From Shigella phage sb1, in sequence record PQ666539: a DNA stretch of 64,000 nt; one strand, given 5' to 3'. Position 1 is the first letter of the stretch. Each line of letters starts with the position of its first letter. A program made the position numbers and the translations under genes. The notes beneath the pieces are model-generated. The model saw only the letters and a list, made by a program, of their open reading frames with translations. It was not told the DNA's origin and searched no databases. Positions 21,613 through 21,884 of the stretch are shown piece by piece.

Positions 21613-21683
21613 TATTTTTCCTTTCAATTCATGGGTTAGTAGATTAATTATACAATAAATATATAAAGCAATAAGGAGGATAT

Positions 21684-21884
21684 ATGGTACAAAAATTAAT
21701 GGCACTTGTTAATGCCATAAAAGGTAATAAAAAACGTATAGCTTTTACTATTTCTGCTATGGTAGGAATTTTACTCTGGAATTTTGTTTTATCGCCAATT
21801 GATATTGCTCATGGTGTTAATATTCCAGTAATTACTCTTGATACATTCGTAGATTTAGCATTTGCTTTGGTTGGGTTAATTTAA
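21684..21884 (+). CDS. small hydrophobic protein on the opposite (plus) strand
   Basis: 66-aa ORF preceded by AAGGAGGA Shine-Dalgarno at 21673-21680; lies in the 56-61 intergenic gap. Confidence 0.45.
   Translation: MVQKLMALVNAIKGNKKRIAFTISAMVGILLWNFVLSPIDIAHGVNIPVITLDTFVDLAFALVGLI

Follow-up and report, generated by a model that had tools for sequence, protein, structure and literature searches.

The small open reading frame (ORF) that lies on the plus strand between genes 56 and 61 of Shigella phage sb1 is very likely to be a real and conserved gene for a membrane protein, one that is probably expressed late in infection. The ORF is found at 21684-21884 (plus strand, stop codon included) of the window, by which we mean the whole 64-kb stretch of DNA that was analysed. 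According to the ORF listing it begins with ATG and specifies a product of 66 amino acids, MVQKLMALVNAIKGNKKRIAFTISAMVGILLWNFVLSPIDIAHGVNIPVITLDTFVDLAFALVGLI. The feature is already known, as it belongs to a long-annotated but uncharacterised family, and it is not new as a sequence feature. Its interest lies in its absence from the T4 reference annotation, its conservation throughout the T-even phages, and the probable sharing of about 30 bp of promoter DNA with gene 56. The genome of T4 is among the most thoroughly studied, yet its reference records, NC_000866 and AF158101, carry no annotation for the small ORF and leave the gap between dam and gene 61 empty. Since the gene is missing from this annotation, any proteomics, CRISPRi screen or RNA-seq counting that is based on it will miss the gene as well.

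The small gene, its locus and its family

The minus strand of the window harbors 66 ORFs of at least 100 amino acids, and the plus strand 10 short ones. The initial annotation had drawn attention to a lone small ORF on the plus strand with a canonical Shine-Dalgarno sequence, and this is indeed the sole plus-strand ATG ORF of at least 40 amino acids within the 64 kb that is preceded by a strong Shine-Dalgarno sequence. The latter, AAGGAGGA (21673-21680, plus strand), is separated by 3 nt from the ATG, or by the 4 nt originally given when the distance is counted from the GGAGG core. The identities proposed for the flanking genes are also borne out. On one side is gene 56 (21094-21612, minus strand), which encodes a dCTPase/NTP pyrophosphohydrolase (phrog_173, E 2e-45), and on the other is gene 61 (21881-22909, minus strand), which encodes the DNA primase (phrog_47, E 3.9e-102). 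Gene 56 and the small ORF are divergent, with 71 nt between their start codons, whereas the small ORF and gene 61 converge and their stop codons overlap by 4 nt (21881-21884). This overlap is also seen in T4, RB69 and HX01, and is not found in VR7 or Mineola. The region as a whole is 97-99% identical to many Tequatrovirus genomes, and its best match is Shigella phage SHFML-26.

In T4, the copy of the small ORF is located at 17738-17938 of NC_000866 (3239-3439 of the extracted locus), where it is 94% identical and lies in the gap of 309 bp that separates dam (16846-17625) from gene 61 (17935-18963). The order of genes in T4 is hence gene 56, dam, small ORF and gene 61, and a tentative statement in the initial annotation that T4 has dam at this locus proves to be right. 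The accompanying remark that no ORF of methyltransferase size is present here is equally sound. There is no methyltransferase ORF (of about 259 amino acids) between genes 56 and 61, the gap from gene 56 to the small ORF being only 71 nt, and local tblastn detected no homologue of dam or segF in the whole window (the best E value with T4 Dam as the query was 2.0). Intact but unannotated copies of the small ORF are found elsewhere, including the RefSeq record of T2 (NC_054931, 16642-16839) and JS98 (NC_010105, 15343-15537).

Several inserts known from relatives are missing from the intervals 21052-21093 and 21613-21683 of the window, namely dam, segF and an insert of around 367 bp with two small ORFs. 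In T4 and VR7, segF sits between soc and gene 56, and the insert of around 367 bp, made up of soc.2 and a neighbouring ORF, occupies the same interval in many close relatives. The locus is a hot spot at which inserts are gained or lost about a backbone that is itself fixed.

A homology search with the 66-residue product, which had been suggested at the outset, gives a full-length match to the profile of PHROG 2024 (E 8.8e-30, residues 2-66 against profile positions 1-65 of 65), a family whose annotation is function unassigned. Its orthologues include RB69ORF029w, RB32ORF030w and VR7ORF033w, the first of which has borne its name since the original annotation of RB69. Among relatives the gene is labelled as 'RB32ORF030w hypothetical protein', as 'hypothetical protein', a label that dates from 2003, or as 'putative membrane protein'. 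One Klebsiella phage record names a family member 'DNA packaging ATPase', which is evidently an annotation error.

With tblastn, the small ORF was found in 692 phage records. It is present at 80% identity or more in 502 of these, and the primase is likewise present at 80% identity or more in 502 records, a match that makes the small gene appear universal in Tequatrovirus. The initial annotation had held that absence from close relatives would speak against a gene, and the ORF is in fact present in all of them. Identity to the window protein is 89-98% within Tequatrovirus (97-98% for the annotated members) and falls to 46-55% in Mosigvirus and Gaprivervirus, where the orthologues retain the length, the position and many of the residues. 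The copies in Dhakavirus and Jiaodavirus, which were located by synteny, are only 15-25% identical and still keep the core motif and the locus. They are represented by an unannotated ORF of 66 amino acids in the gap between the primase gene and gene 56 of Dhakavirus phage FB (2520-2809 of the extracted FB locus), and by the 63-residue CPT_Mineola_027 at the equivalent position in Jiaodavirus. Copies of the Dhakavirus type occur in 122 records and those of the Jiaodavirus type in 166. The small ORF is flanked by gene 61 on one side and by gene 56 or dam on the other, with both neighbours on the opposite strand, and this arrangement extends to the diverged copies in Dhakavirus and Jiaodavirus. 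No such ORF is present in Krischvirus W115 or Pseudotevenvirus leB, where gene 56 or other genes directly follow the primase gene.

A wider profile of the family retrieved 114 clusters at 90% identity, every one of which came from T4-sized contigs and none of which carried a supported functional name. When a profile from a narrow alignment was searched exhaustively against 1.84 billion representatives, seven proteins were returned, of which none is a remote relative outside the T4-type phages; six are family members or fragments thereof, and the seventh, an unrelated protein of 1255 amino acids, matches only marginally (E 3.4e-4).

Members of the family are 63-69 amino acids in length and are characterized by the core motif W-N-x4-P-x5-G-x3-P, which is present in the window protein. 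In a set of 29 diverse members, the window protein included, W32, N33, P38 and G44 are invariant and P48 is nearly so. Pairwise comparison of nine distinct Tequatrovirus alleles gives dN/dS values of mostly 0.1-0.3, with extremes of 0 and 0.61, and the variable sites number 7, 4 and 13 at the first, second and third codon positions, respectively. The small ORF is under purifying selection at the level of the protein. Taken together with its conservation across genera and the full-length PHROG match, this selection indicates that the ORF is a genuine protein-coding gene rather than a chance reading frame. It is also part of the conserved gene set of the T-even-type phages (Tevenvirinae), in which it is represented in at least five genera.

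Members of Gaprivervirus (VR7, VR25 and UPEC01) carry two tandem paralogues of the small gene. In VR7, the second copy is of the Dhakavirus type, starts 8 nt after VR7ORF033w and is unannotated (2701-2904 of the extracted VR7 locus). Near its 3' end there appears to be an insertion of 1 nt, by which the final residues are altered and the stop codon is lost.

The predicted membrane protein

The initial annotation had described the product as hydrophobic and had suggested that it could be a small membrane protein, a prediction on which the hydrophobicity, the charge distribution, two AlphaFold models and the predicted transmembrane segment (residues 21-41) of the RB69 orthologue now agree. The window protein has a GRAVY score of 1.17, and its Kyte-Doolittle means over 19 residues reach 1.6 or more in two places, around residues 18-41 and at the C-terminus, with a peak of 2.0. 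AlphaFold was run twice, with 8 and with 29 sequences, and the two runs agree on helices at residues 2-11, 16-42 and 52-63, with moderate confidence (mean pLDDT 73-75.5). The second of these helices (codons 16-42, 21729-21809, plus strand), which is modelled with a pLDDT of about 80 and has Kyte-Doolittle means of at least 1.6, is the predicted transmembrane helix and contains W32, N33 and P38. It is followed by a conserved tail (codons 43-66, 21810-21881, plus strand) that includes H43-G44, P48, D/E53 and the hydrophobic helix 52-63. For RB69ORF029w, the published prediction is a transmembrane segment at residues 21-41 and no signal peptide (Nolan et al. 2006).

The charged residues are unevenly distributed. 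All five of the basic residues (K/R) are found in positions 1-18, and the acidic residues are limited to D40, D53 and D57, giving a charge of +5 over residues 1-18 and of -2 after the helix. From the positive-inside rule, the N-terminus is predicted to be cytoplasmic. In the Jiaodavirus member, the C-terminal hydrophobic stretch is only around 11 residues in length and is too short to form a second transmembrane segment, which favours a predicted single-pass protein with an outer tail of about 24 residues. The product would accordingly be a small protein of the inner membrane, in which a cytoplasmic N-terminus that is basic and amphipathic precedes one transmembrane helix at about residues 16-42. 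Its tail of about 24 residues, with the HG...P...D/E pattern and the short hydrophobic helix, may be periplasmic or may dip back into the membrane, either as a re-entrant segment or as a second membrane segment that forms a hairpin. The invariant residues are concentrated in the tail and towards the outer end of the helix, and this suggests a surface for contact with a partner rather than a pore.

Searches against collections of known families were made with three family members and gave no match in Pfam at E values up to 10, or in NCBIfam and the PADLOC models of defence and counter-defence proteins at E values up to 1. A sequence profile search of the PDB returned only a spurious match (E 0.48) to a membrane subunit of Na+-NQR. 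With Foldseek, the matches among viral models were members of the family itself, and the remainder were non-significant helical hairpins.

T4-type phages own a dedicated holin, T, whose loss abolishes lysis. A holin or pinholin-like role, in which the small protein would itself permeabilise the inner membrane, is nonetheless suggested by a product that is small, hydrophobic and probably late. The predicted helix 16-42 provides the one transmembrane domain that is the minimum for a holin, the hydrophobic profile could accommodate two membrane segments, and two members carry the name, one from vB_EcoM_OE5505 ('Holin' in UniProt/BFVD) and one from Klebsiella phage KP1079 ('putative holin'). These labels are, however, annotators' guesses without reported experiments, and no holin family is matched in the Pfam and NCBIfam searches described above. 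Moreover, the C-terminus (…DLAFALVGLI) is hydrophobic and the charge is placed at the N-terminus, whereas the charged, hydrophilic C-terminal tail of holins is absent; the second hydrophobic stretch is too short to cross the membrane in the Jiaodavirus member; and the adjacent genes encode a dCTPase and a primase rather than an endolysin or spanin. We therefore regard this reading as improbable, and formation of the lytic hole by the small protein itself as unlikely.

The most likely role is a late function associated with the cell envelope, exerted through contact with another membrane protein, for example in the control of lysis timing or lysis inhibition or in membrane-linked assembly. We offer this role with low confidence, by analogy with other small late membrane proteins of phages. 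In its specific form, which we hold with the same reserve, the protein would be a core late component of the inner membrane that uses the W-N…P…HG…P motif to bind a membrane partner of phage or host origin, and its loss would alter lysis timing, lysis inhibition or assembly. That the gene is retained universally, and at one fixed locus, speaks for a conserved late role in preference to that of an arms-race accessory. A universally retained protein that is predicted to be late and membrane-bound represents a reasonable candidate for a player in lysis control or membrane-associated assembly, and, if the proposal is true, a new functional gene would be added to the T4 map.

The upstream region and the timing of expression

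The initial annotation had proposed that the small ORF is expressed from a late or middle promoter and had suggested a search for a late promoter upstream on the plus strand. Of this proposal, the late part is supported and the middle part is not. The exact late consensus, TATAAATA, is not present upstream of the small ORF, but a variant of it, AATAAATA (21654-21661, plus strand), is. This variant carries A in place of T at -13, matches the late consensus in silico at seven of eight positions, and is followed by the sequence tataaagcaat. It thus has the make-up of a putative gp55-dependent promoter, with an element of the TATAAATA type, no -35 element and an AT-rich downstream segment. As the late motif occupies positions -13 to -6 (PMC1524935), transcription would start near 21667 (plus strand), 6 nt after the last A of the element, and would produce a leader of 17 nt. 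Concerning a middle promoter, the plus strand contains no MotA-type or sigma-70-like site, and the middle transcripts of T4 are of the opposite polarity (PMC2988020).

Among the 50 late sites listed for T4, 32 are perfect and 9 have A at -13, which makes this the commonest variant (Geiduschek and Kassavetis, PMC2988020), and the T at -13 is poorly conserved among T4 relatives (Nolan et al., PMC1524935). The hidden Markov model used in the latter study called no late promoter upstream of RB69ORF029w (Nolan et al. 2006). At a distance of 12-22 nt before the ATG, and ahead of the Shine-Dalgarno sequence, an ATAAATA core is present in seven lineages or contexts: the window type, T4, a third Tequatrovirus context, Gaprivervirus, Mosigvirus, Dhakavirus and Jiaodavirus. 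The sequence around the core is not alignable between them, and the positions of the motifs were read directly from the sequences, automatic DNA alignment being too noisy for use. A Shine-Dalgarno sequence of the AGGAGG or AAGGAG type is kept in every lineage, and the base at -13 is A, G or C in all of them, with the consensus T in none. In Jiaodavirus, the nearest ATAAATA leaves so little room before the ATG that the putative start would cut into the Shine-Dalgarno sequence, and a second copy is found further upstream.

Within the window, ATAAATA is scarce. There are 4 copies on the plus strand and 7 on the minus strand, compared with the roughly 24-29 expected from base composition (about 24 for the plus strand), a depletion of around 6-fold and 4-fold, respectively, and this scarcity fits with selection against stray late promoters. 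An exact TATAAATA is located on the minus strand at 21090, just upstream of the start of soc, where the late promoter of soc is expected. Two further exact copies are found on the plus strand, at 10741 and 52800, and neither is followed by an ORF. As a separate observation, soc itself (start at 21051, minus strand) contains an in-frame TAA at 20902-20904, which is codon 50 and reads AAA (Lys) in relatives, and Soc is thereby truncated to 49 of its 78 residues. The change could reflect an ochre mutation, of natural or laboratory origin, in a decoration protein that is not essential, or else an error in the sequencing.

The late transcripts of T4 are of either polarity, whereas its early and middle transcripts all run counter-clockwise (PMC2988020). 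On this basis, and with the conserved upstream element, we infer that the small gene is a late gene. Host RNA polymerase with gp55, together with gp33 and the gp45 clamp, would initiate at the variant late promoter AATAAATA with +1 near 21667, and the 17-nt leader would carry AAGGAGGA. Transcription of the small gene would proceed clockwise, opposite to the surrounding early and middle genes and convergent with the primase gene 61, and no plus-strand terminator is predicted after the small ORF. Among published data, a T4 dRNA-seq data set is described as comprising 150 T4 start sites, of which 22 are antisense (bioRxiv 10.1101/2024.04.04.588121); a literature search on the ORF name, on T4 Ribo-seq and on unannotated small ORFs found nothing relevant.

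Several small membrane or periplasmic proteins of T4, such as Imm and Sp, act early. The small gene lies within a cluster of early and middle genes and close to sp, and it could be a real membrane-protein gene that is expressed early or at the middle stage, for instance for a superinfection-exclusion or anti-defence factor of this kind. Against this, early or middle expression would need a strand that in T4 is used only by late transcripts (PMC2988020), and a promoter of the sigma-70-like or MotA type that the plus strand does not provide, the only conserved upstream elements being ATAAATA and the Shine-Dalgarno sequence. Near-universal retention at a fixed locus is also unlike the rapid turnover of accessory anti-defence genes. 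Early or middle expression is thus quite improbable, and late expression is the reading that we retain.

The putative late element is closely interwoven with the promoter of gene 56. On the minus strand, the homologue of the T4 middle promoter P56/69 (21673-21647) consists of a MotA box, TATTGCTTTA (21673-21664), a spacer of 11 nt and the -10 sequence TATAAT (21652-21647). In the T4 list, P56/69 has its start site at 16813, and the consensus for middle promoters is a MotA box of (a/t)(a/t)(a/t)TGCTTtA positioned 12+/-1 bp from the -10 sequence (PMC2988021). The gene 56 promoter of the window is near to this consensus and an excellent match to the architecture of T4 middle promoters. In the T4 record, the rep_origin note at oriA gives the transcript for genes 56, segF and 59 as the primer RNA. 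The plus-strand AATAAATA falls within the spacer of this minus-strand promoter. The arrangement arises because dam is missing, which brings the small gene next to gene 56 and thereby places the late element inside the gene 56 middle promoter; across the dam-less genomes, the element is found either inside that promoter or next to it. The offset of the late element to the MotA box varies by genus and its distance to the ATG stays similar, which ties the element to the small ORF. In the dam-less genomes, a single stretch of about 30 bp is probably common to two promoters of opposite polarity that act at different times, and it would be used by gene 56 before replication and by the small gene thereafter.

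A hairpin with the appearance of a terminator is encoded on the minus strand at 21718-21689. It contains 8 pairs (dG -8.9 kcal/mol, z -1.9), is followed by TAATTTTTGT, and lies around 160 nt downstream of gene 61, within codons 6-12 of the small ORF. T4 has the identical hairpin, but neither Mosigvirus nor Gaprivervirus has a recognisable counterpart. Transcripts of gene 61 may terminate at the hairpin, before the promoter of gene 56 is reached. As a cause of the conservation of the region, it was rejected because it is weak and confined to Tequatrovirus.

It is highly improbable that the ORF is incidental and that the region is conserved for its minus-strand signals, such as the 3' end or terminator of gene 61 and the gene 56 middle promoter, or for a late antisense RNA directed at the transcripts of genes 61 and 56. 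In favour of this view, the region forms the 3' flank of gene 61, with a terminator-like hairpin and T run at 21718-21699, the gene 56 promoter abuts the start of the small ORF, and a plus-strand transcript with no predicted terminator would run antisense into gene 61. Against it, the substitutions track the plus-strand reading frame (the dN/dS of 0.1-0.3 and the variability of third positions noted above); the length of 63-69 amino acids, the start, the Shine-Dalgarno sequence and the four invariant residues are all retained at protein identities of 15-50%, at which the DNA can no longer be aligned; the hairpin is not recognisable outside Tequatrovirus; and the tandem paralogous ORFs of Gaprivervirus are understandable if a protein is encoded, but not if the region acts as a terminator.

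Relationship to known phage systems

The small protein can be compared with several groups of phage proteins. It resembles the class II holins and pinholins, such as S68 of phage 21, in its length (these likewise have around 65-70 residues), in being very hydrophobic and probably late, and in the possibility of two membrane segments. However, its charge is N-terminal and not C-terminal, it matches no holin family, its gene has no endolysin neighbour, and in some of its subfamilies the second segment is too short.

Imm, Sp (gp61.3), the antiholin RI and RIII are likewise small proteins for which a membrane or periplasmic location is predicted, and their genes are scattered outside any lysis cassette; sp is only around 1.5 kb from the small ORF. 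There is no detectable similarity in sequence or profile between these proteins and the small-ORF product, and any likeness would be one of function. Their genes run counter-clockwise and are expressed early, or both early and late, whereas the small gene runs clockwise and has an element of the late type only.

With respect to its regulation, the small gene is reminiscent of soc, a late gene in the early region of T4, which likewise has a short late element just upstream of its start within a cluster of early and middle genes. In contrast, soc is carried on the same strand as its early neighbours and has the exact TATAAATA, whereas the small gene is found on the opposite strand and has A rather than T at -13.

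The closest likeness is to RB69ORF029w, RB32ORF030w and VR7ORF033w of PHROG 2024, which represent the same gene, with the same length, the same position convergent with gene 61, and the same upstream ATAAATA and Shine-Dalgarno sequence. Nothing essential differs between these genes and that of the window, which abuts gene 56, whereas the T4 copy lies upstream of dam.
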